From positions 89,003 to 153,002 of the IMG/VR virus record IMGVR_UViG_3300017917_003053: 64,000 bases of DNA, one strand, 5' to 3'. The translations under genes and the position numbers were made by a program. This document shows positions 52,097 through 64,000 of this stretch, in pieces. Each line of letters begins with the position of its first letter. Positions within the stretch are counted from its first letter, which is position 1. This DNA comes from a virus. The notes under the pieces are model-generated. The model was not told where the DNA came from and searched no databases. It saw nothing but the letters and a program-made list of their open reading frames with translations.

Positions 52097-52358
52097 TTTT
52101 TTGTGCCACTATTTTATAGAAGACACCCTCGTAAATTTCTTCCATACCTTTTATAAGCTTATGATGTAGCTTACATAAAGTAATACCGTTATCAACAACA
52201 AAACGTAATGCTGGATAATTTGCCCATGTTTTAATATGATGAGCATTTAATCCAGTCTTTTTATTACACCCTGGCCACTGACAAGAGTGGTTATCTCTAG
52301 TATAGACCTTCTTTCTCCATTCTTTATATAGTGGATCTTTATAGTTTCTGAATGTCAT
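52083..52358 (-). CDS. HNH endonuclease (91 aa), terminase-associated
   Basis: 'WRKKVYTRDNHSCQWPGC...AHHIK...NGITLCKLHH'. Confidence 0.85.
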   Translation of the reverse strand: MTFRNYKDPLYKEWRKKVYTRDNHSCQWPGCNKKTGLNAHHIKTWANYPALRFVVDNGITLCKLHHKLIKGMEEIYEGVFYKIVAQKNGRL

Positions 52359-53319
52359 GATCCACCATATCTTTTACCAGATTCATAAATGATATTTCTG
52401 GTTTCCATCCCAAGTATGTTTGAGCTTTTTCTGGTGCTCCTCGTAAATATTCTACTTCTGCTGGACGATATAATTCTGGATCAATCTCTACATAATCTTT
52501 ATGATTTAATCCAGCGTATTCAAATGCTAATTCTAAAAAGTTTTGAACACTCCATGTGTGACCAGTAGCAATAACATAATCTGCCGGACTAGTTTGCTGT
52601 AACATTAGCCACATTGCTCTAACATAGTCTTTAGCGTGACCCCAATCTCTTTGAGCATTTAAATTGCCTAACTTTAATTTCTCTGTTGTTTCTCCTCTTT
52701 TTACCTGACCAATATATTTGGTTATCTTACGAGTTACAAAATTTTCGCCTCGTCGTGGACTTTCATGATTAAAAAGGATGCCGCAGCAACCAAATACTCC
52801 GTAGCCTGTTCTGTAAATTCGCACCATATTGTGCGCCGCTAGCTTTGCTACTCCATATGGACTCTGTGGCAACAATGGTGTGTTTTCATCCTGATATTTT
52901 AGTCCTGCTATATTAGTACTGTAATTAAAACCAAACATTTCGCTAGTGCTTGCCTGATAAAATTTGGTACTAAATGAATAATTCCTAATGGCCTCTAGGA
53001 GGTTCACTACTCCAATAGCATCAATTTCAAACGTTGTGGTGGGTTGTTTGAAACTGGTGCCAACATGACTTTGAGCGGCCAAATTATAAACTTCATGTGG
53101 CTGGTAACGATTGATAACGTCGTTGCATCCGCTAGGATCAGTAAGATCAAATTCTTCCAAAATGAAGTTTGGATTGTTGAGCAGATGGGAAACTCTGTTA
53201 AGGGTATTTGTGCTACTGCGGCGAAATAGGCCAACCACAGTATAATTTTTCTCTAAAAGTAAGTCGGCCAAATAACTTCCGTCTTGTCCATTAACTCCGG
53301 TGATAATTGCTTTTTTCAT
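52339..53319 (-). CDS. gmd: GDP-mannose 4,6-dehydratase
   Basis: 'ITGVNGQDGSYLA', 'YNLAAQSHV', 'YQASTSEMFG', 'SPYGVAK', 'ILFNHESPRRG', 'RDWGHAKDYV'. Confidence 0.95.
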   Translation of the reverse strand: MKKAIITGVNGQDGSYLADLLLEKNYTVVGLFRRSSTNTLNRVSHLLNNPNFILEEFDLTDPSGCNDVINRYQPHEVYNLAAQSHVGTSFKQPTTTFEIDAIGVVNLLEAIRNYSFSTKFYQASTSEMFGFNYSTNIAGLKYQDENTPLLPQSPYGVAKLAAHNMVRIYRTGYGVFGCCGILFNHESPRRGENFVTRKITKYIGQVKRGETTEKLKLGNLNAQRDWGHAKDYVRAMWLMLQQTSPADYVIATGHTWSVQNFLELAFEYAGLNHKDYVEIDPELYRPAEVEYLRGAPEKAQTYLGWKPEISFMNLVKDMVDHDIQKL

Positions 53320-54131
53320 GATTCGTCCTTTAGTACGCTTTCTGGTGTGAAAAATGGTCGGTCTACTGAATTGTCTGCATAATTGTGATATTCTTCTAAT
53401 TTATTTTTATATTTTTCTGTTGCCAATTTAAGTATTTCCATCTCTCGTCCTTCTCGTTCTCTGATATCTTCATCCTCTAACATGCGTATTAATCCTACCC
53501 AACTACTCTTACCATCCTCAATTCTTTTGATACGTTGTTCACGAGTGGCCTTAAGATCCTTACTAATCTTTTGTTGTTCATTTAATAGTTTAGTATACTC
53601 ATTAGTATAGTTAGCAATACTATTTCTAGCAAAACTTAATTGAGTTTCCATATTGACCAGTTTCGCCGTGTCTCTTTGATCTTCTGGCTTGTCGTATTCT
53701 TTATCAACATCCTTTTGTAATTTTTCCGTCATCATAATGTGACGCTTTCGTTCCTTCATGCTTCGATTAATCAAAATATCAATAGTGATAAATTGTTTGA
53801 TCTGAAGTTCTTCAGCAGGAAGAACATCTTCTCTGAACTGTTTAATTAAGCCTATCCACGTATTTTCAAAGTATTCTAGCTCGCCTGTTTCAGCATCAAA
53901 CTGACGGGCGATTTCTGGCCAAAATGTTTTACTATGTAATTTATATCGTAGTGTTTCGTTGTCTTTTTTCTCGTCGTTGCTCAGGTATAAATTATTTTCT
54001 TCAATGTACCTTTTGATGGGAGCTTCACTACGATTTAATGATTCTGCTATTTGTTCTATAGTTAGACTTTGAACATTATCTCTTATGTATTGTTCTTCAT
54101 CTAAACTTAGTTGTCCTCTTTTTTTAGGCAT
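53316..54131 (-). CDS. HTH plus coiled-coil protein, candidate terminase small subunit (271 aa)
   Basis: N-terminal 'LTIEQIAESLNRSEAPIKRYI' HTH; helical oligomerisation-like region; upstream of TerL. Confidence 0.45.
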   Translation of the reverse strand: MPKKRGQLSLDEEQYIRDNVQSLTIEQIAESLNRSEAPIKRYIEENNLYLSNDEKKDNETLRYKLHSKTFWPEIARQFDAETGELEYFENTWIGLIKQFREDVLPAEELQIKQFITIDILINRSMKERKRHIMMTEKLQKDVDKEYDKPEDQRDTAKLVNMETQLSFARNSIANYTNEYTKLLNEQQKISKDLKATREQRIKRIEDGKSSWVGLIRMLEDEDIREREGREMEILKLATEKYKNKLEEYHNYADNSVDRPFFTPESVLKDES

Positions 54132-54775
54132 GAATAATCTTTCATAAGAATGGATATGTGATTTTTTAGTTTGTCTAAGAGTGGCTTGTTAACTTTTACT
54201 CCATGCTTCAATTTTAAATAGATTTCTCTATATTCTGAAATAACAATATTATCATCTAAAAAGTTGATGATCTCTTGGTTTTGCAGAAGTGAGGCTGTGT
54301 CATATTTGTCTGGGATAGGAGTATCATTATTTTCATCATCATGATGAATGCTCTGGGGTTTCATAATGTTTTTTTTATTTTCATTACGATTGCTCCAATT
54401 GGCATATAGTTCACAATCATTTTTATTAGAATATTGTAAACACTGACTTTTACTGGAGGTGCAATGTTTATCATAAAGGGGACAACTCAAGCATGGTTTG
54501 TCGGGCCTTTGATAATTATTACGTTTATAATTAAATAATCTATTTCTAACGTGGGTCCAGAGAAAGTTTTCTAATGGGCGCTTTTGATCATATTTTTGCA
54601 AGCCTTCTATAGCAAATATAGCTGCTTGTTGTTTCATATCATCAAAATCGTGATAACCAAATTTAAATTTGTACGCTAATCTTTTACTGATATTATCTAG
54701 TACTTTTAAAAAATCTTCTTCTGTTACGCCATATTGTTCATATATATTATTCTTGTTTATTTTTTTCTTCGTCAT
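54107..54775 (-). CDS. Phage sigma70-family sigma factor-like protein with Cys-rich insertion (222 aa)
   Basis: Region-2-like 'DDMKQQAAIFAIEGLQKYDQKRPLENFLWTHVRNRLFNYKR'; 'CLSC..C..C..C' insert. Confidence 0.7.
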   Translation of the reverse strand: MTKKKINKNNIYEQYGVTEEDFLKVLDNISKRLAYKFKFGYHDFDDMKQQAAIFAIEGLQKYDQKRPLENFLWTHVRNRLFNYKRNNYQRPDKPCLSCPLYDKHCTSSKSQCLQYSNKNDCELYANWSNRNENKKNIMKPQSIHHDDENNDTPIPDKYDTASLLQNQEIINFLDDNIVISEYREIYLKLKHGVKVNKPLLDKLKNHISILMKDYSCLKKEDN

Positions 54776-54902: not shown

Positions 54903-54981
54903 GATGAGCCTCTTGCTATTTTGGTCAACACTACTATAATAAACAGTTACACATTTTGTGCAATTTATGGAGATTATAAAA

Positions 54982-55194
54982 ATGGCGAATTACAAGAAAT
55001 GGCTCGATAACGAACTAGATTTTATCAGGAACAATCAAGATTCTATGAATGATGAGGTTTTGGCCACTAAATTAAGTGAAATGACTGGCCAAACTATTAC
55101 GCGAAGCATGATTCGTCGCCAAAGACGAAAGTTGGATATTAAAAAGAAACGAGGCCGTCCACGCAAAGAGAAAGTGAGTGAACTTCATGGTTAA
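54982..55194 (+). CDS. Small basic DNA-binding protein (HTH/Myb-like with AT-hook-like KRGRPRK)
   Basis: 'WLDNELDFIR...LATKL..TRSMIRRQRRKL..KKRGRPRK'; RBS GGAG; promoter TTGCTA-16-TATAAT at 54913-54940. Confidence 0.7.
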   Translation: MANYKKWLDNELDFIRNNQDSMNDEVLATKLSEMTGQTITRSMIRRQRRKLDIKKKRGRPRKEKVSELHG

Positions 55195-55402
55195 AGTATT
55201 ATACGCGGTTATTTTTATGTTAGCATATTGTTCGTCAGAATGTTTTGCTAACTGTTGCTGGGTTCAACAACAACCTCAAATTGTGGTGCAGGAAGTTAGG
55301 CCAGTTGTATATTATCAGCCGGTTCCTGTAACATATTATTACTATGTGCCGGTCATGCTGCCAGCACCAGTTTACAATCCTTGGGTGCGATACTGCTACT
55401 AA
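55187..55402 (+). CDS. Small secreted/membrane protein, Tyr/Val/Pro-rich
   Basis: Signal-peptide-like N-terminus then 'VVYYQPVPVTYYYYVPV'. Confidence 0.55.
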   Translation: MVKVLYAVIFMLAYCSSECFANCCWVQQQPQIVVQEVRPVVYYQPVPVTYYYYVPVMLPAPVYNPWVRYCY

Positions 55403-55430
55403 ATAGCAAACTTCGACTCATGGATATAAA

Positions 55431-55462
55431 AGGGGCGTGTGGAAACACTCGCCTCTTTTTTT
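55431..55462 (+). terminator. Rho-independent terminator
   Basis: AGGGGCG-TGT-GGAA-ACA-CT-CGCCTCT followed by a T-run. Confidence 0.75.
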
Positions 55463-55580
55463 ATAAACTCACAGAAAGAAACTGGCCAATTCTATATGAG
55501 GGTGCTTATTTTTTTTGGACCACCGGGCGTTTTCTGAAAAATCGTACGTTTTCCATACAAAAACAAAAAAACCCCCCTTT

Positions 55581-55783
55581 CGCTCCGCCGTTTTTGATGT
55601 AACTCCTTTCGTACCATAGACTTACGACTAATATGGTGATCGATACGATCTTCTGTTTAAGAGCAAATGCTATACCACAAAGAAAAAATATTTTTGGCAC
55701 AATATTTGCTGTACATAACCTTACGATATTGTAAGGAAAGATTTTTGTTGACTTCTAAAGTTGGCATGGTATAATGTCGATAT
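55581..55783 (+). promoter_or_regulatory. Composite early promoter cassette 1 (GC box, paired IHF-like site, divergent sigma54 boxes, 18-bp palindrome, sigma70 + sigma28)
   Basis: TAACTCCTT-N7-ATAGACTTA 55600; sigma54 boxes at 55662(-) and 55695(+); CCTTACGATATTGTAAGG 55719; TTGACT-16-TATAAT 55748; TAAA-16-GTCGATAT. Confidence 0.75.
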
Positions 55784-55801
55784 AAAGGAAAAGGAAAGAA
55801 A

Positions 55802-55930
55802 ATGACAACGCTAATCGTGATCGGAAACAAGTACAAGGTTTATGCGGAAATGGGAAACGGCAAGCGTAGGCTGCTGGGAACGTTCAAGAGTAGCGATGAG
55901 GCTATTCGTTTTATGAACAACGTACGATAA
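55802..55930 (+). CDS. Small early protein (42 aa, MTTLIVIGNKYKVYAE...)
   Basis: Manual translation; own promoter and purine-rich RBS. Confidence 0.6.
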   Translation: MTTLIVIGNKYKVYAEMGNGKRRLLGTFKSSDEAIRFMNNVR

Positions 55931-55950
55931 AAATCGTAAGTTTTTCCCCA

Positions 55951-55986
55951 TTGACGATTCAAGAATCCTTGGTATAATGTCGATAT
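55951..55986 (+). promoter_or_regulatory. Overlapping sigma70/sigma28-like promoter
   Basis: TTGACG-16-TATAAT with TCAA-16-GTCGATAT. Confidence 0.7.
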
Positions 55987-56013
55987 AAGAAATAAGAGAG
56001 AAAGAAAGAGAGA

Positions 56014-56172
56014 ATGAACATGAGAAAGTATTTTGGTTCGGATGATGGTTATGATCGGTATCGTGATAACCGTGATGGATACGTTGACGCTCAAGCCAAA
56101 CTTGACGAACAGTATCGCGAACACCTTCGCTTCGTTGAAGAAATGAAGAAGAAGGAAGCCAAGAAGGCTTGA
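56014..56172 (+). CDS. Small early protein (52 aa, MNMRKYFGSDDGYDRY...)
   Basis: Manual translation; own promoter. Confidence 0.6.
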   Translation: MNMRKYFGSDDGYDRYRDNRDGYVDAQAKLDEQYREHLRFVEEMKKKEAKKA

Positions 56173-56218
56173 CAACTAAAAAATAAGCGATATAATCGAG
56201 GAAAGAAAAGGAAAACAA

Positions 56219-56368
56219 ATGACCATTCAAATCCAAAACACTGTTCGCCGGTTGGTTGCTCGTCATGGATATTCGGCCACGTTTGTGCAGAATATGGGAG
56301 AGGGTATCTATCTGTACAGTATCGGTGGAATCATGTATCGTATTCGTGGTGATGGTACGATTCTCTAA
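56219..56368 (+). CDS. Small early protein (49 aa, MTIQIQNTVRRLVARHG...)
   Basis: Manual translation; promoter TTGACA-16-TATAAT at 56169; RBS AAGGA. Confidence 0.6.
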   Translation: MTIQIQNTVRRLVARHGYSATFVQNMGEGIYLYSIGGIMYRIRGDGTIL

Positions 56369-56421
56369 GCCTTGACAAATAAAAAGATATTGGTATAATG
56401 GAAACAACCCCAAAGGAAAAG

Positions 56422-56613
56422 ATGATGAATAGCCTTGACAAGATTCTGGCCTCTATGCGTTCTGGTAAGTATGGTAGCGTGATCGACCCGAAGGGTAATG
56501 CTCACGTGGGCATCATTAACGCTATCATGCGTGAGGATGGTAGTGGTAAGAACTGGCTCGTTACACTGAGCAATCGTACAGTAAGTGAACAGGTGTTCAT
56601 TCACGCCACCTAA
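56422..56613 (+). CDS. Small early protein (63 aa)
   Basis: Promoter TTGACA-16-TATAAT at 56372; RBS AAGGA. Confidence 0.65.
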   Translation: MMNSLDKILASMRSGKYGSVIDPKGNAHVGIINAIMREDGSGKNWLVTLSNRTVSEQVFIHAT

Positions 56614-56643
56614 TGGGGGTTATCCCCCATACCGAGGGGATTC

Positions 56644-56825
56644 GGGCCGCCGGTTTTGACGTAACTCCTTACGCCATAACGACTTAGGGCTAATCTGAAC
56701 ATCGTATCGATCAGGTGTTTAGTAGAATAAAATATATTGGCATGGTATTTGCTGTAGAGAAACCTTACGACATTGTAAGGAAAGTTTTTTTGACTTCTAA
56801 AGAATCTATGGTATAATGTCGATAT
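56644..56825 (+). promoter_or_regulatory. Composite early promoter cassette 2
   Basis: GGGCCGCCGG; TAACTCCTT-N7-AACGACTTA 56662; TGGCATGGTATTTGCT 56738; CCTTACGACATTGTAAGG 56763; TTGACT-16-TATAAT 56790; TAAA-16-GTCGATAT. Confidence 0.75.
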
Positions 56826-56849
56826 AAGAGAAAGAAAGAGAGAAAGAGA

Positions 56850-57023
56850 ATGAATCCTAAGACTATCAATGATGCTCGTGCTGTTGTGTGGACTTCCTCA
56901 GTAGAGATTGCCAATACCTACTGCCTGTATATCGACGGTGTACTGGTACTGAACAGCCTTCCACTAGATGAGTTCTACCCCCTCTTGCGTAGGGCTATCG
57001 ATGGTGTGAAGAACATGGCATGA
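56850..57023 (+). CDS. Small early protein (57 aa, MNPKTINDARAVVW...)
   Basis: Manual translation downstream of cassette 2. Confidence 0.6.
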   Translation: MNPKTINDARAVVWTSSVEIANTYCLYIDGVLVLNSLPLDEFYPLLRRAIDGVKNMA

Positions 57024-57054
57024 ACATATGTTTACTCCCCCATTAGGGGGGATT

Positions 57055-57362
57055 CGGACCGCCGGTTTTGACGTAAACCCTTGTGACATAACAACTTAGG
57101 AACAGTATCACCTAATCCAGACCGCTAGCAAACCCCGTGCCACGGAATAGAAAATCGAAGTGCTGGAATATTGAGCAGTTAAGATAGGCGAGGTGTTGCA
57201 AAATGCTACACTACCATAGTTTTAGGCCGAGTTATGCGTAGCAAAATGCTACACCACTGTAGCAAAATGCAACGCTCAATATCTAAGCACAAAAAATGTC
57301 ATAGCGTTTTCCCCGAGGAAAACACCATTTCAGAATATTTCTTGATTGGCACGGCGATTGCT
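57055..57362. promoter_or_regulatory. sigma54 promoter block with three enhancer-like palindromes
   Basis: Paired IHF-like site 57074; TGGCACGGGGTTTGCT (-) 57127; TGTWGCA-AAA-TGCWAC-type sites at 57194, 57237, 57258; TGGCACGGCGATTGCT (+) 57347. Confidence 0.75.
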
Positions 57363-57395
57363 CTTATATAGGGTATAAGAAAGAGAGAGTTAGAT

Positions 57396-57521
57396 ATGAG
57401 ATGGTTGGTTTTTAATAGTCGGATGGATGTGATTGGTACGGTTTTTGCTGATAACTACACTGCTGCCTTTATCGAGGCTCGTCGTATGTTTCGGAATGTG
57501 GACTATATTCAGGAAATCTGA
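57396..57521 (+). CDS. Small early protein (41 aa, MRWLVFNSRMDVIGTV...)
   Basis: Manual translation; directly downstream of a sigma54 box. Confidence 0.55.
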   Translation: MRWLVFNSRMDVIGTVFADNYTAAFIEARRMFRNVDYIQEI

Positions 57522-57596
57522 AACTTCCCCCGAAATGGGGGTTGCGACGGCGGAAAAGTTTGGTATAATGCTAGAAAGAAAGAAAGAGAGTTAGTT

Positions 57597-57731
57597 ATGA
57601 ATGAGTTGGTTTTTTTCGTTTCCGATTGCTGTGGTTGTGAGAGTAACCCGGATTATGGTATCTGCTCTGCTTGTGGTGAGCATTGTGAAATCGTAACCGA
57701 AGTCTATAAAATCGAAAAAGAAATCGCTTGA
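57597..57731 (+). CDS. Small zinc-finger-like protein (44 aa; SDCCG...CSACGEHC)
   Basis: Manual translation; promoter TTGCGA-16-TATAAT at 57542. Confidence 0.6.
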   Translation: MNELVFFVSDCCGCESNPDYGICSACGEHCEIVTEVYKIEKEIA

Positions 57732-57792
57732 CCTTTCAAGTCTACCCTGTATAATGTCGATAAGTAAGAAAGAGAAAGAAAAGGAAAAGAAA

Positions 57793-57993
57793 ATGGAACT
57801 GACTGCTAACGAACTGCGTGATATTCACCTTGCCATCATCTATCGTGAGAATCGGATTCTGGATACCATCCTTCCGATCATGAAGAGTGAAGAAAAGGAA
57901 GCCTATGTTGAGGAAGCCTCTAGGCTCCACGCTCTGCGTGAGAAGGTTTGTCGGATGACTCTGGAAGCCGAACTGGGTTTCAGCCTCTCTTGA
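57793..57993 (+). CDS. Small helical early protein (66 aa, MELTANELRDIHL...)
   Basis: Promoter TTGACC-16-TATAAT 57728 plus GTCGATAA; RBS AAGGA. Confidence 0.65.
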   Translation: MELTANELRDIHLAIIYRENRILDTILPIMKSEEKEAYVEEASRLHALREKVCRMTLEAELGFSLS

Positions 57994-58050
57994 CAGCACA
58001 AAAAAAGTTTGCTAGAATCCATCATCATCAGTAACCCAAAGGAAAAGAAA

Positions 58051-58380
58051 ATGGCTACCAAGTTCAAGATTATCGAAGATGCCAAGCGTCAGGCTCGCAT
58101 GTGCTTTTTGGGAATCGCTATTCCCCACCAGCCTAGCCTTGCCGATGGAGTTTACGGGCCGATCCGTAGCGAGAAGGTTTTGAAGTTCAACCGTAAGGCT
58201 CTCCGTCGTGCTGGTAGCGTCAAGACCGAAAAGGCTGACCCCCGCTACAAGGGGGGTGATGATCTGATGATCGTAAAGGTTGGCAAGCCGGGTTCAGCAG
58301 AACGCAAGGCCGCACTGGCCGAACAATATGCTGCGATCCTCGCTTGTGGTGAGGAGATCTCCCCCTTTGCGGAGGGGTGA
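58051..58380 (+). CDS. Basic early protein (109 aa, MATKFKIIEDAKRQ...)
   Basis: Promoter TTGACA-17-TAGAAT 57990; RBS AAGGA. Confidence 0.7.
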   Translation: MATKFKIIEDAKRQARMCFLGIAIPHQPSLADGVYGPIRSEKVLKFNRKALRRAGSVKTEKADPRYKGGDDLMIVKVGKPGSAERKAALAEQYAAILACGEEISPFAEG

Positions 58381-58411
58381 TCTTTTGTACACTACACTTT
58401 AGTGGGGGTGG

Positions 58412-58601
58412 ATGTCAAAATGGCAGCCGGCGGGTCGAAATCGTTGTAAGTGCTTGTGAGATAACGACTTAGAACATAAATTCAAATGGCATCATATTTG
58501 CTTTTAGCATAGTCTGTGCCAAAACTTGGTCAAAATTTCTTGACATCAAAATCTAGATTTTTCTCTTGCAATCTCAAGTCTAGGCTGTATAATGTCGATA
58601 T
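58412..58601 (+). promoter_or_regulatory. Composite promoter cassette with convergent sigma54 pair
   Basis: TGTCA-AAA-TGGCA; paired IHF-like 58447-58471; sigma54 (+) 58487 and (-) 58506; TTGCAA-16-TATAAT 58566; TCAA-16-GTCGATAT. Confidence 0.7.
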
Positions 58602-58620
58602 AACCACTAAGGAGAAGAAA

Positions 58621-58938
58621 ATGACTCACGCCGAAGCGACTAAGATGGTTTTGGGAAAGCGTAACCGTAGCCAGCGTAAGGTTGGCAACAATACCTACGC
58701 CTACATTCAGGCTGATGGTAGCGTTGCTATCGAACTGCATGGTACTAACGTGGTGGTGATTTATCCCGACGATAGTGTGATGCTGAACAGTGGTGGATAT
58801 CGTACGCATACTACCAAAAAGCGTATCAACCAGTATTCACCCGTTAAGGTTTACCAGAAAAACTTTGAATGGTTCCTGTCGGATGGTACAGAGTTTGAGG
58901 ATCGTATGATCGTAACCCCCGATTGGGTGGTGGTGTGA
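58621..58938 (+). CDS. Early hypothetical protein (105 aa, MTHAEATKMVLG...)
   Basis: RBS AAGGAG; motif 'LHGTNVV...LNSGGYRTHTTKKRINQY'. Confidence 0.75.
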   Translation: MTHAEATKMVLGKRNRSQRKVGNNTYAYIQADGSVAIELHGTNVVVIYPDDSVMLNSGGYRTHTTKKRINQYSPVKVYQKNFEWFLSDGTEFEDRMIVTPDWVVV

Positions 58939-59196
58939 TGTATAAACTTACTATTTATGATCTGTTAAAATATTCTGTTAAAAAATGGAACTAAAGAAAG
59001 GGGCTAAGGATGGCCGATCTATATATGGACTGGACTAGTTTCGGTGTGGGATTTACTCTTGGTATTATTTGTGTTTGGTTTGTTTGTGATCTTGTTTTTC
59101 CAATAAGGAAGTGAATATGCGTACAGGTGATGCAATCGTTCTTTCTATTTCATTCGTGATCGGATGTATAGCGGCTTGGATTGTGAACAGTTGACG

Positions 59197-59369
59197 CAAA
59201 GCCTTGCTGCGTAAGGACTTACGATAGACTCGCCGGGCCGCGATTTTTTTGGCATGATATTTGCTACATAGCAAGCGGTGTGCCAAACGCATGTCCGAAG
59301 CCTTACGACATTGTAAGGAAAAAATATTTGTGGTGGTAGGCTTGACAAGCCGATAATCTACTGTAGAAT
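59197..59369 (+). promoter_or_regulatory. Composite promoter cassette with convergent sigma54 pair and 18-bp palindrome
   Basis: Paired IHF-like 59197-59221; sigma54 (+) 59250, (-) 59270; CCTTACGACATTGTAAGG 59301; TTGACA-16-TAGAAT 59342 with GCCGATAA in the spacer. Confidence 0.75.
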
Positions 59370-59394
59370 CAGTGCATCACCCGGAGAGAAAAAG

Positions 59395-59607
59395 ATGCTC
59401 AACTCTTTTGACGATGTTAACCGGATTCTGGACGAACTGGCAGCGGCGGAGATTCTTGAGCCGATGGTCGAGCCGATTGATGAGAGCGATTGTCACCCGA
59501 TGGATTGGGCCGAAGTTACGGGTCTGGCCGATGAGTTGGTCGATGAGATTTATCCAGAGCCGCAAACTATGCTTGACGCGGATGGATTTGTGTGGTATGT
59601 TACTTGA
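59395..59607 (+). CDS. Small very acidic protein (70 aa)
   Basis: D/E-rich, almost no basic residues; RBS GGAG. Confidence 0.7.
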   Translation: MLNSFDDVNRILDELAAAEILEPMVEPIDESDCHPMDWAEVTGLADELVDEIYPEPQTMLDADGFVWYVT

Positions 59608-59622
59608 AAAGGAGAAAGACAG

Positions 59623-59859
59623 ATGAGTCACCCTGACCCTTGCTACGATCCCGATAACTCTTATGAGGATGATAACATGGACTACCATGATGATACTGCC
59701 GATGCTATCTATGATGATTACAATGATTTCTATGATGATAGCATGGATGGTGACCACGATTCCGCAATGACTAGTTGCGGTTGGGGAACCGATGAGGATT
59801 ACGGACATTTTGGGGACGATATTGATTCCTTTCACGACTACTATGGAGATGATTGCTGA
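59623..59859 (+). CDS. Small Asp/Tyr-rich hyperacidic protein (78 aa)
   Basis: 'DSMDGDHDSAMTSCGWGTDEDYG'; no Lys or Arg; RBS AAGGAG. Confidence 0.7.
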   Translation: MSHPDPCYDPDNSYEDDNMDYHDDTADAIYDDYNDFYDDSMDGDHDSAMTSCGWGTDEDYGHFGDDIDSFHDYYGDDC

Positions 59860-60098
59860 TGAGACAGTCTAAGTGTGTTGTAACGGTTACGGATACTTTT
59901 GGTGGTGAGCCTAACTATGGTTGGGTTAAGCGTTATGAGTTTGCTCCTCGTAATGCAGAGTCTCAACGTAGTGTGATTCGTCAGGCTAAGGCTCTGGCAA
60001 ACATGACCGCAGTAAAGGCCGATACTTATGATTATGGTGATGGCTATACGGTGAAGCCGCGAGGCTACAACCAAGTCATTTTTGTGGATTTTGAGTAA
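59859..60098 (+). CDS. Early hypothetical protein (79 aa)
   Basis: TGATG coupling; motif 'TDTFGGEPNYGWV'. Confidence 0.7.
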   Translation: MRQSKCVVTVTDTFGGEPNYGWVKRYEFAPRNAESQRSVIRQAKALANMTAVKADTYDYGDGYTVKPRGYNQVIFVDFE

Positions 60099-60168
60099 AG
60101 TCAGGACTTGACAACGGTCGATAGTAAGGTATACTTCACGAAGGTTTCAACTACTAAGAAAGGTTTTT

Positions 60169-60576
60169 ATGAACGAAGTTTTTATGTATGGTTTTTTTGG
60201 TTTCGCTGTTCTCTCTGGCATTCTTGCTTTCTGCTTGTTCCATCTGTATTGTGGTCTTCGTGCTAGTCTTTCTTGTGCATCGGTTGGCGATATTTATAAC
60301 TTTGAATATCTTCAGCCAGTTACTGGTACTTATGAGCGATTCATGGCTAAGGTTATCGATGTTCATCAGTTCACCGATGACTATCTTGCTAGGCTGAATA
60401 GTAAGAGTCGTTATCGTAAACATGATAATAACTTCAAGCGTACTAAGCATCTTGTTACTGCTCAAATGCCGGATGGTACTATTCGTAACTTTTATGCTGA
60501 ACGTACTCGCAATGTGCGTCGTCCCCTCCTTGGTGGGGTAGCATTCAAGACCGGCTTGGCAAGCCTCCTCTTCTGA
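60169..60576 (+). CDS. Membrane-anchored hypothetical protein (135 aa)
   Basis: N-terminal hydrophobic helix; promoter TTGACA-16-TATACT 60108. Confidence 0.7.
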   Translation: MNEVFMYGFFGFAVLSGILAFCLFHLYCGLRASLSCASVGDIYNFEYLQPVTGTYERFMAKVIDVHQFTDDYLARLNSKSRYRKHDNNFKRTKHLVTAQMPDGTIRNFYAERTRNVRRPLLGGVAFKTGLASLLF

Positions 60577-60583
60577 GGGGGTT

Positions 60584-60691
60584 CTGCCAAAATGGCAGCC
60601 GGGCCGCCGATTTTAACGTAACTCCTTGTGTATCAACCACTTAGGACGATTAAAGTTTTTCTCTTGACACGCCGATAATATCCTGTATGAT
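60584..60691 (+). promoter_or_regulatory. Composite promoter cassette (enhancer-like palindrome, IHF pair, sigma28 + sigma70)
   Basis: CTGCCA-AAA-TGGCAG; TATCAACCACTTA (exact IHF consensus WATCAANNNNTTR); TAAAGTTT...GCCGATAA; TTGACA-16-TATGAT. Confidence 0.75.
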
Positions 60692-60697
60692 ACCAGT

Positions 60698-60868
60698 ATG
60701 AATACTTATGATTGCTATGTTGGAAGTTCGTGGCGTGTTTTCAAACATGGTCGATTTATTGGCTATGTTGTGGCCTTTAGTGAGTATTATGCTTGGCAAA
60801 AGGCTAAGGATAAGTATGGTAATGATTTGAGAATAGAAAAGGTTTTGGCCCCATCTTCTAACGGTTAG
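60698..60868 (+). CDS. Small early protein (56 aa) whose 3' end overlaps the tRNA
   Basis: Manual translation MNTYDCYVGSSWRVFKHGRFIGYVVAF...; resembles 57396..57521. Confidence 0.45.
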   Translation: MNTYDCYVGSSWRVFKHGRFIGYVVAFSEYYAWQKAKDKYGNDLRIEKVLAPSSNG

Positions 60869-60918
60869 GAAATCGGATTTTCGCTCCGAGAATCGGGGTT
60901 CGAGTCCCCGTGGGGTCA
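60847..60918 (+). tRNA. tRNA-Glu (anticodon TTC), CCA not encoded
   Basis: Cloverleaf: GGCCCCA/TGGGGTC acceptor, TCGGA-TTTTCGC-TCCGA anticodon arm, CGGGG-TTCGAGT-CCCCG T arm. Confidence 0.9.
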
Positions 60919-61002
60919 TTAGAAAGTGTATCAGCATATCCTATCGGATTGCCGGTCGTGCTGATAGTCAGCCAACATAAAAGATTCTTGAAGAGATAGG
61001 GG

Positions 61003-61030
61003 TTGACAGGACGATAATAGAGTGTAGAAT
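61003..61030 (+). promoter_or_regulatory. sigma70-type promoter upstream of the ncRNA array
   Basis: TTGACA-16-TAGAAT with GACGATAA in the spacer. Confidence 0.75.
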
Positions 61031-61041
61031 ACAAAGTATAA

Positions 61042-61609
61042 CGTGTGGGCCAGAGCGAGGCAACGAACTGATCACTCGACCTTTGGTGGTGCAACTCCAC
61101 CTCCATACGCTTGTCACCAACGAAACTCCGATTCATTCGGTGTGCTACCCTCCATAATGAGATCATAGCCTATATTGGTGACACAAACTTGCGTAGGTCT
61201 AGCGACTAGATTGGGATAACCTGTACGATAAACCTACGGCTGTTATGCAGCGTGGGGTTGCCTAGCGGGGTTATACGTTAGGATAGTATACCAATCTATG
61301 GGGGTGCGATTCCACCGCTACGCGCTAATACTTTATGGGTGACGGTTTTCCGTATGACGAGGCAAAGCACAGCAGAGCGAAGGAAACTTCCATGTGGCCT
61401 CCGAAACTGCGAAAGCAGGAGTAGAAATAGGTGCCACCCATAAAAAATATGCCAGTAGCCGTTACTTAGAGTCAGATAGTTGAGTCATGACCAATCTATG
61501 CTGATTTCCGTGGGCGGTTTCCACCAGTTTTTACCTTGCTCCAAGGGTTCATAATATCGGAGTATTGGTGGATTATAGGGATGGATCGTAAAAGTCCCGC
61601 TGGTTTTTT
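61042..61609 (+). ncRNA. Array of five structured RNA units (two tRNA-like), family unknown
   Basis: No credible plus-strand ORF; consecutive closed stems 61042-61110, 61112-61183, 61191-61323, 61332-61444, 61451-61604; GAAA tetraloops; terminal U-tract. Confidence 0.65.
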
Positions 61610-61647
61610 CTTATTGACTTGCCGATAACTAATGGTATAATACGAGT

Positions 61648-61851
61648 ATGAAAGTTACCGCTAAACAAAACGCTCGCAAGTGGACAAAAGAACGTCTCAA
61701 GAGACATCCCGGCTTGTGGGAAGTTGAGCAGGAAGAGAAGTTTGTGCCTTGCTGGCCGGGAGAAGCGGCCATTCTGATTAAGAATACAACTGATGGGTGG
61801 AGCGGCTGGTTTCCGATAAAAGATATTGACATTGTAGAGAACGAAGGGTAG
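61648..61851 (+). CDS. Hypothetical protein (67 aa)
   Basis: Promoter TTGACT-16-TATAAT 61614; the ATG lies about at the predicted start site (possibly leaderless). Confidence 0.65.
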   Translation: MKVTAKQNARKWTKERLKRHPGLWEVEQEEKFVPCWPGEAAILIKNTTDGWSGWFPIKDIDIVENEG

Positions 61852-61873
61852 AATAGGACTAAAGGAGACAAAG

Positions 61874-62146
61874 ATGTTTGGAACACGATTTGGTCAAACG
61901 AAGTTTGCTTTTACTGACCGAGTGACTCGTACTGTGAGTGGTGATTCTCTTACTTTTAGTGGTAAGAGTATTAGTGGTAAGCCTTTTTCTATTACTGTTA
62001 AGCATAGTGATGCTAACGAGTGGATTAATGGCGGACTGATTCAAAAGTGTTTTCCGTATCTTGATGCGGATAATCGTGAGATTCTTATGACGGGTATTGA
62101 TAGCGAAACTTGGAACGAAATGTTCCCACCGGAGGATGAAGAATGA
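61874..62146 (+). CDS. Hypothetical protein (90 aa)
   Basis: RBS AAGGAG; 'LIQKCFPYLDADNREILMTGI..W..MF'. Confidence 0.75.
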   Translation: MFGTRFGQTKFAFTDRVTRTVSGDSLTFSGKSISGKPFSITVKHSDANEWINGGLIQKCFPYLDADNREILMTGIDSETWNEMFPPEDEE

Positions 62147-62373
62147 CAGTTGCCGAACTGATTGAGCAGTTGAAGAACTATCCCGGCGATATGAGGGTAT
62201 TGACTCTTGGGTATGAGGGTGGGTATAATGACATTATGCTAGATAATAATGACATTGTATTTAATGTACCTAGAGGGGAAGGTGCTTGGTATTATGGTCC
62301 GCATGAATGCGTGAAGTTTACCGAAGAGAAAACTGGTACTCCATGTGTGATTATCTGTAGGAGCAGAAAATGA
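62143..62373 (+). CDS. Hypothetical protein (76 aa, MTVAELIEQLKNYPGDMRV)
   Basis: Common small phage protein N-terminus; ATGA coupling. Confidence 0.75.
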   Translation: MTVAELIEQLKNYPGDMRVLTLGYEGGYNDIMLDNNDIVFNVPRGEGAWYYGPHECVKFTEEKTGTPCVIICRSRK

Positions 62374-62588
62374 ACTGGCATTATGATAATCCTATTGAAG
62401 ATGGCGAGTATATCTGTTGTCTAGCGGGTTATTCTGTACCTATGATCCTTTCGTGGAATAAGGATCGTGGTGGTTGGAGGATGCCCGTTCAACTGACCTA
62501 CCAAGTAGTTGATCGGATTCTGCTTGATTCTGAAAACGTTGTGTGCTATACTAGTCTGAATGAGATTCCTATGCCGGAGGGTTGGTGA
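62370..62588 (+). CDS. Hypothetical protein, DUF551-like (72 aa)
   Basis: 'W....P.EDGEYIC...W...W...V..Y...PMP'; coupled. Confidence 0.6.
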   Translation: MNWHYDNPIEDGEYICCLAGYSVPMILSWNKDRGGWRMPVQLTYQVVDRILLDSENVVCYTSLNEIPMPEGW

Positions 62589-62848
62589 TGGAATGGATTA
62601 GTTTTTTCGGTCCTCGTCGTCCTATTAACGGACAGAAGGTTTATTACTTCGGTGAGTATATTGGTGTGTGGCGTGGAGAGTATGCTTATTCTCCAAATGA
62701 TCCAGTAAGTCCACATCTTATATTTTGCGATGAATCTTTTGGTGTTGTGGATCGTATGGATGCCCCTTGGTGGCAGGTTTATGAAGGACAACCCAAACCT
62801 CCACCTCCAGAACAAACTTACCCGCCAGATTATCCTTGGAAAAACTGA
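62588..62848 (+). CDS. Hypothetical protein (86 aa)
   Basis: TGATG coupling; Pro-rich C-terminus. Confidence 0.65.
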   Translation: MEWISFFGPRRPINGQKVYYFGEYIGVWRGEYAYSPNDPVSPHLIFCDESFGVVDRMDAPWWQVYEGQPKPPPPEQTYPPDYPWKN

Positions 62849-63396
62849 TTACTTTTCTTGATATTCTCTATAGCCCATAAAGGCTGTAAATTAGAATAGT
62901 GAAAACATTGTTTTTGTTGAATAGGATCAGAGAGATCAAATGAAGCACACGGCTTGATATGATCAATATGCCACTTTCCGTAATTATCCCAACCCATACC
63001 TTCCGTAAACATTGATGATAAATAAACTTTTAATTCTTCGATAGAACATCCTATTAGAGCCATCGTTGATTCAGATTTACTATTACGTTTAATGGCTTTA
63101 TAAATTCTACCTCTCAAGTTTATCTTAATTTTGTAATCTAGATCTGTTTGCCTACGGTGTTTTGAACGTTCTCTTTTACGAGCATTGACTTTATCTTTAT
63201 TGAGTTTTTCTAGCTCTCTTTGTCTACTTTTATATTTCAAATAATATGAGGCTGCGTATTCTTTATACTTACCTTTACGAGACATAGAACGACATTCTTT
63301 ACATTGATGAGCATATCCATTTTTTCTAGTGTTACGTTTATGAAAATTAATTACTGATAATTCTTGTTTACATTTATTACAAATTTTTGTATCCAT
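62830..63396 (-). CDS. HNH homing-endonuclease-like protein (188 aa)
   Basis: N-terminal CxxC...CxxC; C-terminal 'WHIDHIKPCASFDL...CFHYSNLQPLWAIENIKKSN'; RBS AGGAG; antisense and AT-rich relative to neighbours. Confidence 0.85.
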   Translation of the reverse strand: MDTKICNKCKQELSVINFHKRNTRKNGYAHQCKECRSMSRKGKYKEYAASYYLKYKSRQRELEKLNKDKVNARKRERSKHRRQTDLDYKIKINLRGRIYKAIKRNSKSESTMALIGCSIEELKVYLSSMFTEGMGWDNYGKWHIDHIKPCASFDLSDPIQQKQCFHYSNLQPLWAIENIKKSNQFFQG

Positions 63397-63482
63397 TTTA
63401 TCTCCTAGGATTAGGCCGGAATATAGTATTATACACCAAAATGATCCATAGTGGATGCAAAATTATTACAAAGGACTTAAAT

Positions 63483-63695
63483 ATGGCTAAAAACTTCAAA
63501 GATTTGCATACTATCGACGCAAAGGATATGACCCGCGATCAGGCTATGATTTATGTGATTAACTTCTTTAACTCTCGTATGGCTACTATGAGTAATAGCC
63601 ACAGAAATAAAGTTAAAGAGGTTATTGGACTGCATGAGATTGGTACTAGCGAACTGGTTAACAAGTATCTGGAGTTGGTTCTTGAAAACTCTTGA
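63483..63695 (+). CDS. Hypothetical protein (70 aa, MAKNFKDLHTIDAK...)
   Basis: RBS AAGGA. Confidence 0.65.
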   Translation: MAKNFKDLHTIDAKDMTRDQAMIYVINFFNSRMATMSNSHRNKVKEVIGLHEIGTSELVNKYLELVLENS

Positions 63696-63804
63696 CAATA
63701 TTTGTACTTGTGGCAACTGTAATGAACTGTGCTATATGCTAGATAAGCATGAAGTGTTCTGGAGTTTTTGTGCCGATTGCTACTGGTGGTATCTAAGGTA
63801 TTGA
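63682..63804 (+). CDS. Possible Cys-rich micro-protein (40 aa, TTG start)
   Basis: 'CTCGNCNELC...CADC'; GGAG upstream. Confidence 0.3.
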   Translation: MKTLDNICTCGNCNELCYMLDKHEVFWSFCADCYWWYLRY

Positions 63805-63900
63805 TACGTAAGGACTTAGAGCAAATCCGGCGGGCCGAAAATGGCATACCAAATTTTTTTTAAAGAATCCTCTTGACTACGCCGATAATAGATGTATACT
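63794..63900 (+). promoter_or_regulatory. Composite promoter cassette (IHF pair, GC box, sigma28 + sigma70)
   Basis: TAAGGTATTGATA (IHF consensus, reverse); TAAA-16-GCCGATAA; TTGACT-16-TATACT 63873. Confidence 0.75.
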
Positions 63901-63995
63901 TAGGGAAACAATGGACGGGGATAGCCACAATGATATCAAAAGAGGCTATCTGAAATGCTGGTCGAGTATGGCGGAAGCCGACATTGTTTTTCCTA
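63901..63995 (+). ncRNA. Putative structured RNA (multi-stem junction)
   Basis: GGAAACAATG/CATTGTTTTT closing stem, GATAGCC/GGCTATC stem, GGC-GGAA-GCC hairpin, directly after a promoter. Confidence 0.5.
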
Positions 63996-64000
63996 ATCCT

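Follow-up and report, generated by a model that had tools for sequence, protein, structure and literature searches.

The last 64 kb of a 153,002-bp virus record from IMG/VR (IMGVR_UViG_3300017917_003053), a stretch of 64,000 nucleotides called the window here, carry seven composite promoter cassettes at 55.57–63.9 kb. Each cassette is 150–250 bp long and lies between operons of tiny genes. Judged from their sequence, they would be modular early promoters with several inputs at which the sigma54 polymerase of the host docks, a reading which we believe and doubt in about equal measure. An earlier note on this DNA had described seven blocks which reuse the same parts. This observation was confirmed, and all seven were found at their places, although not all of the parts are present in each block: strict sigma54-type boxes occur in five of the seven and an 18-bp palindrome in three. 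The motifs are clearly enriched over background, with seven matches to the sigma54-type box TGGCAYN5TTGCW in the window (0.09 expected), six matches to the core of a two-repeat element named D1 (0.18 expected), and eleven sigma28-like pairs in the genome (0.08 expected). The interpretation as multi-sigma promoters is partly supported.

In the proposed arrangement every cassette has as its core a sigma70 promoter close to the consensus, with a 16-bp spacer and often an extended -10, which would be fired by host RNA polymerase on entry of the DNA and to which four optional modules may be added in fixed geometry. The first is the operator CCTTACGAYATTGTAAGG, 0, 11 or 22 bp upstream of the -35, presumably bound by a protein which faces the polymerase. 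The second comprises boxes presumed to bind host sigma54 holoenzyme, since they match the consensus exactly, keep a rigid spacing and recur as a pair in 110 further viral loci; outward boxes in overlapping pairs would be compact divergent promoters. As the phage lacks an activator ATPase, a docked sigma54 polymerase would either await a host activator, as a conditional second input, or stay parked. D1 or its CTGCCAAAATGGCAG variant, placed beside an outward box, may form the third module, a phage-specific enhancer or operator array. The fourth would be an element resembling the sigma28 class which is set among the sigma70 hexamers and might be read by host FliA or by a phage protein of the sigma70 family. 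Proteins bound to the dyads would gate the sigma70 and sigma54 inputs.

Sigma54-Type Boxes

The seven strict boxes of the window are the sole matches in the 153,002-bp record and all lie within 4 kb, together with three further boxes with one mismatch, while the reversed pattern used as a control gave no match. Cassette A has a gene-proximal -24/-12 box (55695–55710, plus strand) and, upstream of it, an outward near-consensus box with one mismatch (TGGTAT..TTGCT, 55662–55677, minus strand). Cassette B has a box at 56738–56753 (plus), and an outward box (57127–57142, minus) adjoins the D1 element of cassette C. Overlapping pairs are found at 58487–58521 (58487–58502, plus, and 58506–58521, minus, with one mismatch) and at 59250–59285 (59250–59265, plus, and 59270–59285, minus, both strict). 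The box at 57347–57362 is situated in the spacer of a weak sigma70-like promoter, TTGATT-17-TATATA (57341–57369, plus), which is followed by an ATG at 57396.

Transcription by sigma54 polymerase starts about 12 nt past the GC, and the polymerase needs a signal-activated ATPase. At box 57347, which has two look-alikes in relatives, the predicted sigma54 and sigma70 starts fall within a few nucleotides of each other, just before a normal leader and the ATG. Since the predicted starts coincide in this class, at least some of the boxes would be promoters. In a face-to-face pair the predicted starts are about 18 nt apart and point outward, the elements of each promoter lying within the transcribed DNA of the other; such a pair is predicted to be a compact divergent promoter. 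A 370-nt gap free of open reading frames (ORFs), flanked by an outward and an inward sigma54-type box, contains three copies of a 15–19-nt GTAGCAAAATGCTAC-like palindrome (57194–57276), which may serve as an array of operators or belong to an origin. Searches of the phage for a sigma54 factor or activator of its own gave no Sigma54_DBD match, no GAFTGA in six frames, and no RpoN box in real ORFs. A PF00158 (Sigma54_activat) match proved to be a RuvB-like ATPase and not an enhancer-binding ATPase.

Related phages conserve the cassette, which is present in more than 80 IMG/VR contigs. In 421 kb around the IMG/VR loci which match the palindrome, 109 strict boxes were counted where less than one is expected. 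The logo of 204 unique sites reads TT-TGGCAC-R-R-Y-A-T-TTGC-T, or in an alternative rendering TTTGGCAC-R-R-Y-A-T-TTGCT. The order TGGC..TTGC was found 253 times in the relatives, other orders three to four times, and the N6 spacing occurs in 274 sites as compared to at most seven at any other spacing from N2 to N11. A symmetric direct repeat of TKGCA, as for a protein of the response-regulator type, was ruled out because order and N6 spacing are this strict. A hairpin formed by face-to-face boxes was likewise ruled out, since the N5 segments of the two boxes do not complement each other.

The 35-bp face-to-face double box was found in 118 IMG/VR stretches, 110 of which are new loci. In these loci, which range from 33 to 66% G+C, 519 boxes were counted over 944 kb, with the textbook sequence TGGCACG-N4-TTGCA as their logo; 68 of the loci have no other module of the present clade. 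Because the double box recurs over this range of G+C contents, mostly without the other modules of the clade, a universally conserved host protein would be its only natural reader across such phages. The loci (L194 to L266 and later, for example L213:418-596, L194:6630-6900, and L212:673-815) include a 44-kb record with terminal repeats and 59% G+C from an unrelated phage (L213), with a tandem series of four double boxes in 180 nt, and a 480-kb record classed as a provirus (L212), where at least two genes have double boxes in front of them. A search of 401 bacterial genomes from the class of the candidate host gave no double box; about two would be expected by a rough estimate of its density in IMG/VR, which makes this result little informative. 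At the level of the motif the sigma54 assignment of the earlier note stands, with a textbook consensus, rigid order and spacing, and conservation over many phages.

The boxes could also be operators of a phage DNA-binding protein comparable to MotA, that is, activator sites upstream of a weak -10 (TACGAT) inside the operator, with a merely coincidental likeness to sigma54 promoters. The N5 and the flanks (RRYAT, ATTTGCT) are indeed more uniform than in typical sigma54 sets, many boxes stand in palindromic pairs like the operators of dimers or tetramers, the distance from the box to the operator with its TAnnnT hexamers is fixed, and the phage has many unannotated tiny early proteins. What makes this explanation rather unlikely is that the sites keep the -24/-12 order and spacing and are never symmetric (253 versus 3–4), that the N5 halves of the pairs are not complementary, that the phage has no MotA homologue (no MotA_activ match), and that the canonical double box is present in 110 other loci, 68 without the modules of the clade, which a universal host protein explains easily.

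Another possibility, which we consider unlikely, is that the boxes are decoys which capture sigma54 of the host, or the holoenzyme, in closed complexes that stay silent, and so keep it from the programmes of the host; in a variant of this idea the held sigma54 would be a roadblock between strong tandem promoters. Sigma54 holoenzyme is known to form stable closed complexes which are silent without activator (PMC3844500). A sponge of this kind would fit the lack of an activator in the phage, the orientation of about half of the boxes away from genes, their position between operons just past terminator hairpins, and the four tandem double boxes in 180 nt of the unrelated 44-kb phage. It fits less well with the gene-proximal box, which has a fixed promoter-like orientation and register, with the class of box 57347, in which sigma54 and sigma70 starts coincide before leader and ATG, and with the number of sites, 7–12 per genome, which could take up little before replication of the DNA. 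The earlier note had proposed that the cassettes ensure early transcription in any state of the host or that the first-entering DNA acts as a sponge. The former was not borne out, as about half of the sigma54 boxes face away and no activator ATPase is encoded by the phage. The notion of first-entering DNA had to be abandoned: terminal repeats are absent from the contig, and relatives which do have them carry the cassettes mid-genome.

The Operator

The 18-bp palindrome CCTTACGAYATTGTAAGG has three copies in the genome, all of them in the early region. The copy of cassette A (55719–55736) starts 24 nt after the start of the box and ends 11 nt before the -35, the second belongs to cassette B (56763–56780), and the third (59301–59318) ends 23 nt before the -35. 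The palindrome alone was found in 44 IMG/VR stretches. In relatives the operator starts 23–25 nt past the start of the box, so that a predicted sigma54 start would fall on its first bases. The operator includes TAnnnT hexamers, and its distance from the box is fixed. The distance from the end of the operator to the -35 (TTGAC) is 0 nt in eight cases, 8–12 nt in 40 (peak at 11), and 18–23 nt in 33 (peak at 22). As distances of 0, 11 and 22 bp correspond to whole helical turns, the operator is probably a protein site which works face-to-face with the polymerase. It is also found without any box, either right after D1 or abutting the -35, and is therefore an independent module.

The D1 Element

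D1 is a 53-nt element of two repeats and a GC core, with five direct and two inverted copies at the seven places; all six matches to the core pattern are within 55.57–63.9 kb. On the plus strand are copy A (55574–55626), in which the GC core precedes repeats of the CGTAA/CTTAC type and which is 68% identical to the reference copy, the reference copy B (56636–56688), copy C (57048–57100), copy D (58421–58473), which is joined to a TGTCAAAATGGCA dyad (together 58413–58473), and copy F (60593–60645), which has a TGCCAAAATGGCA dyad (60585–60597) and comes after the multi-hairpin of an operon end (whole element 60552–60645). The inverted copies on the minus strand are E (59204–59240) and G (63801–63839), the latter followed by a lone TGGCAT half-box.

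In relatives D1 has two CGTAAG/CTTAC repeat units either side of a GC core, and the words GACGTAA, ACTTACG and GCCCGCC are 7- to 10-fold enriched near box clusters. A sub-clade has two copies of CTGCCAAAATGGCAG at the position of D1, and cassettes D and F of the window are hybrids of both types. Two D1-type dyads stand about three helical turns apart near -24/-12 boxes, which resembles a sigma54 enhancer. As candidates for a host regulon, D1 and the TGCCA dyad gave few matches in the metagenome-assembled genomes (MAGs) of four potential hosts, located on phage contigs or inside host genes. Because the dyads are often directly downstream of an outward box and are no motif of the candidate host genomes, the protein which binds D1 is probably phage-specific.

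The piece which had been called IHF-like in the earlier note is a real conserved segment, ATAAC-N-ACTTAGG, and relatives keep TATAA-NN-ACTTAGGG/ACTTACG at this segment. The label IHF itself did not survive: the IHF consensus WATCAANNNNTTR fits only two of the seven D1 copies (60631 and 63794), and with 32 matches in the genome and two in these 8.6 kb it is present at about chance level.

Sigma70 Promoters and the Sigma28-Like Pair

The sigma70 promoters which had been claimed for the region are well founded. Sigma70-like sites number 38, as compared to an expectation of 20.2 ± 4.2. Of these, 17 agree with the consensus at 10 or more of 12 positions; all 17 lie on the plus strand, mostly with a 16-nt spacer and several with TG, and each is followed after 20–60 nt by an ATG, with a purine-rich leader. 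Two promoters with all 12 consensus positions precede tiny ORFs at 56169–56196 and 56372–56399 (both plus).

Many of the promoters are interleaved with a second bipartite element, T[AC]AAG-N15/16-G[CTA]CGATA[AT]. All eleven copies in the genome are on the plus strand, seven of them in the early blocks. Its second half-site follows directly after TATAAT in 127 of 148 class I promoters, and in 57 of 136 class II promoters it is placed inside the sigma70 spacer. In the window, class I is represented at 55748–55783 (TTGACT-16-TATAAT with TG, interleaved with TAAAG-N15-GTCGATAT at 55756–55783; ATG at 55802), at 55951–55986, where the promoter has the sigma28-like pair and no upstream modules, at 56790–56825 (ATG at 56850), and at 58566–58601 (TTGCAA as -35; ATG at 58621), the last two also with the pair. 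Class II is found at 59342–59369 (TTGACA-16-TAGAAT with GCCGATAA in the spacer; ATG at 59395), and with interleaved TAAAG-N15-GCCGATAA at 60651–60691 (ATG at 60698) and 63861–63900 (ATG at 63911), all of these on the plus strand. The tail of class I promoters, TATAATGTCGATATAA, has more than 119 matches in IMG/VR.

The pair keeps an internal spacing of 16–17 nt, counted from TAAA, even as it is displaced by about 21 nt relative to the sigma70 hexamers from one class to the other. An interpretation of GCCGATAA as a mere spacer box was set aside, as T[AC]AAG lies at a kept distance upstream in both classes. Promoters for sigma28 (FliA/SigD) have the consensus TAAA-N15-GCCGATAA. The element resembles them in having both half-sites (T[AC]AAG and G[CTA]CGATA[AT]), in its restriction to the coding strand and in its conserved internal spacing, and differs in that this spacing is about 1–2 nt longer and in that it is always interleaved with sigma70 hexamers. 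The proposed sigma28 promoters hold as far as a bipartite element with its own spacing is concerned, but a phage protein of the sigma70 family could equally read it. A 186-aa protein of the phage with a clear region 4 (genome 48689–49249, plus, corresponding to L189:1231-1791) matches Sigma70_r4 (2e-12) and TIGR02937 (55 bits), and a 222-aa protein (window 54107–54775, minus), the first minus-strand gene abutting the early region, gives a borderline Sigma70_r2 match. Because comparable sites in the MAGs have a spacing about 1 nt shorter and the phage encodes sigma70-family proteins, host FliA and a phage sigma factor are equally plausible readers.

Cassette Plan, Conservation, and Shuffling

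When 34 cassettes from about 25 contigs were aligned, a common plan emerged. It begins with a repeat unit, the GC core and a second repeat unit, which are followed by a variable linker of 0–60 nt, at times with an outward box. Next come an A/T-rich tract, TTTGGCAYGATATTTGCT, 7-8 nt and the operator, and then AAAnnTTTT, the -35, CTAAAG, TGGTATAATGTCGATATAAG, a purine-rich leader and the ATG. In relatives the box closest to a class I promoter is 52–53 nt before TTGAC and always directed towards the gene, and outward boxes are 60–100 nt upstream of the promoter. The modules are nearly invariant whereas the linkers vary in sequence and length, which argues for selection on the motifs themselves. 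The earlier statement that the DNA between the parts is not conserved holds across the related phages; within the window it fails for cassettes A and B, which are duplicates, about 80% identical over their whole length.

Modules also occur singly and in new combinations, and at the homologues of the window genes at 56850 and 57597 in a related phage (L031) cassette and plain promoter are swapped. Because cassettes alternate with plain promoters before the same genes in relatives, they appear to behave as shuffling modules too. The same phage has a (CA)n microsatellite of about 19 repeats between two early genes (L031:6597-6634).

This suggests a further explanation, quite unlikely as the whole account and compatible with the multi-input promoters as a second role: the cassettes might mainly be recombination modules, in which function is confined to the sigma70 promoter and the terminator and the parts travel together by descent and duplication. 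Several observations agree with it, namely the duplication of cassettes A and B, the extension of each cassette from an operon-end hairpin to an early promoter, the exchange of cassette and plain promoter at homologous genes, and the published description of promoter-early stem-loop (PeSL) cassettes (PMC4122927). Hitch-hiking would, however, leave unexpected the near-invariance of the modules next to varying linkers, the separation of modules and their recombination in new sets, and the helical phasing of the operator together with the strict geometry of the boxes.

Action as DNA or RNA

The operons which precede the cassettes close with G/C-rich hairpins. An example is seen at 56613–56654 (plus), where the operon-end hairpin is followed by a small hairpin of the GC box and a T run. 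The multi-hairpin at the operon end of cassette F, from 60552, folds with -35 kcal/mol (z -4.1), and most single hairpins are no better than shuffled sequences, with z about -0.8 for two of them. RNAalifold on the 34 cassettes gave -1.9 kcal/mol, with no covarying pair and no consensus structure, and variants in the arms of the operator and of D1 break the pairing with no compensatory changes. A scan with Rfam yielded only a tRNA-Glu.

It appears very unlikely that the repeated parts work at the level of RNA, be it as terminators, as leader hairpins or as stabilisers of 3' ends in the manner of repetitive extragenic palindromes (REP). Such a role could be read from the G/C hairpins in front of the blocks, the ability of the GC core and T run to fold as a small terminator, the strong folding of cassette F, and the terminator-like score of the palindrome in a terminator scan. 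It is contradicted by the alignment, by the uncompensated arm variants, by the inversion of two D1 copies relative to transcription, and by the weakness of most single hairpins. Because neither compensatory changes nor an RNAalifold structure were found, no RNA explanation survives, and the cassette parts would act as DNA.

The Host

A scan of bacterial genomes for the palindrome yielded 22 stretches, about chance by estimate, four of which carry other modules and are true relatives. These four stretches belong to MAGs from freshwater, which bear the labels Burkholderiaceae, Gammaproteobacteria, "beta proteobacterium" and "bacterium". Both rpoN (1.4e-64) and FliA (218 bits) are encoded by the Burkholderiaceae MAG; the three others are incomplete, and one of them has fliA. 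In all four MAGs the box pattern is more frequent than the reversed control. A flagellated, rpoN-positive proteobacterial host fits these data, which rest on binning. A cyanobacterium was considered on account of a Kyano_Gp96 domain in one early protein; no HIP1 site was found in the genome, and the promoter types are no argument for cyanobacteria. The fetched Burkholderiaceae MAG sequences have 44–49% G+C, compared to 43–46% in the early region.

Several points weigh against docking of host sigma54 polymerase at modular promoters. Tight pairs comprise 98 of 244 boxes, which is unusual for working sigma54 promoters, and near class I promoters 26 boxes have the same direction as the promoter while 23 of 49 point away from the genes. 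In 120 of 212 boxes a dyad or a partner box lies within 20 nt downstream, where the DNA must melt, an arrangement which fits repression or parking as well as initiation. Neither this phage nor 15 other viral records with paired boxes encode sigma54 or an activator ATPase. Nor do the candidate host MAGs point to an activator, as D1 and the TGCCA dyad form no regulon in them. The spacing of the sigma28-like pair is about 1 nt longer than in MAG sites of the same kind (15–16 nt by the same count). Finally, binning is weak evidence for the host.

The Early Region and Its Genome

Large genes on the minus strand, among them those for terminase and tail-fibre proteins and an ORF of 3170 amino acids, the size of a tape-measure gene, fill the window from 1 to 54.8 kb. 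From about 55.4 kb to the end of the window tiny plus-strand ORFs follow in succession, and the start of the record also has plus-strand genes, which continue the direction of the early region. The best explanation is that this is the early region, of the host-takeover type, of an uncultured tailed phage of about 153 kb. Nucleotide searches with megablast among GenBank phages gave no match and hence no close cultured phage; terminase, DnaB and DnaE are at most 35% identical to proteins of phages of many phyla, and the terminase is distantly related to those of Firmicutes siphoviruses. The G+C content changes from about 33% in the structural half (1–55000) to 43–46% in the early region (55000–64000) and is back to 34.5% at 63–64 kb; the step could reflect a different origin of the early DNA or different constraints on it.

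Searches of Pfam and PHROGs gave no match for 20 of 22 tiny early proteins tested. The only family matches were those of the ORF at 58621–58938 (plus; Kyano_Gp96, 8.5e-11, and phrog_554) and of an endonuclease, a low-G+C minus-strand gene within the plus-strand early region (62830–63396) which matches a PHROG of endonuclease VII/HNH-type endonucleases (4.9e-22) and is probably a homing endonuclease insertion. Just 5' of the first cassette a 78-aa protein (54958–55194, plus) has a basic tail with an AT-hook-like RGRPRK motif and no family match. Next to the tRNA-Glu (60846–60919), an ORF-free stretch of about 570 nt (61031–61609) with its own consensus promoter (61003–61030) is a candidate non-coding RNA; it matched no Rfam family at E ≤ 0.1. 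An auxiliary sugar-nucleotide enzyme, GDP-mannose 4,6-dehydratase, is encoded between the terminase region and the sigma-like gene (52339–53319, minus; 1.8e-118).

Relation to Known Systems and Significance

PeSL cassettes have been described in T4-type phages (Arbiol 2010, PMC2839356; Comeau 2014, PMC4122927). Like them, the cassettes described here are small composite units of terminator and early promoter, repeated between small variable early genes at points where related phages differ in gene content. In contrast to a PeSL, which consists of a stem-loop and a sigma70 early promoter, they are 3–5 times longer and add the operator, sigma54-type boxes, the dyad/GC element and the sigma28-like pair. 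The phage itself, with its 3170-aa gene and its terminase distantly resembling that of Firmicutes siphoviruses, is not T4-like.

With enhancer-dependent sigma54 promoters such as glnAp2 and its tandem NtrC dyads (PMC3844500) the boxes share the -24 GG/-12 GC consensus and its spacing, two dyads about three helical turns apart within about 60–120 bp, and a strong sigma70 promoter in tandem. Unlike these promoters, many boxes of the cassettes are inverted, overlapping or arrayed, no activator is encoded, and the dyads are often directly downstream of the box rather than 80–150 bp upstream. In Salmonella, E. coli and Vibrio, intragenic and antisense sigma54 sites have been proposed to interfere with transcription, to yield antisense RNA, or to hold the polymerase (PMC3844500). 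These too stand in either orientation and have no obvious downstream gene, but they are scattered, single and weaker than promoters, whereas the boxes here are of consensus grade, paired, intergenic and in register with other modules.

The nearest conceptual precedent comes from flagellotropic and pilitropic phages of Alphaproteobacteria, which carry dense CtrA boxes of the host (Mascolo 2022, PMC9437464). In both cases sites for a host regulator are packed into one part of the genome in several phage lineages; CtrA boxes bind a response regulator, as shown experimentally, whereas the boxes in the cassettes are predicted sites of an alternative sigma holoenzyme. In the literature searched, which does not cover all journals, we found no report in which sigma54 boxes belong regularly to the early DNA of phages and none which implicates sigma54 in lytic phage programmes.

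Early transcription of phages is usually described as the work of host sigma70 polymerase on strong promoters, followed by phage factors. The recurrence of the cassette in dozens of related phages suggests that a form of polymerase new to phage early transcription is used or trapped. We tentatively suggest, with more doubt than confidence, that many unrelated phages carry the sigma54-box module, often as the overlapping 35-bp double box and at times in tandem arrays, either to recruit sigma54 polymerase, for enhancer-gated bidirectional early transcription, or to trap it, which would make sigma54 a regular target of phage genomes, and that the cassette of the present clade unites this module with sigma70 and with an input of the sigma28 class. 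Being short, sharply defined and common in viral metagenomes, the 35-bp double box is directly testable with purified sigma54 polymerase from model bacteria, and the phasing of the operator by 0, 11 and 22 bp is a simple handle for finding its binding protein. If the suggestion is true, some phages would sense the physiological state of their host or, already in the first minutes of infection, would manipulate alternative holoenzymes.

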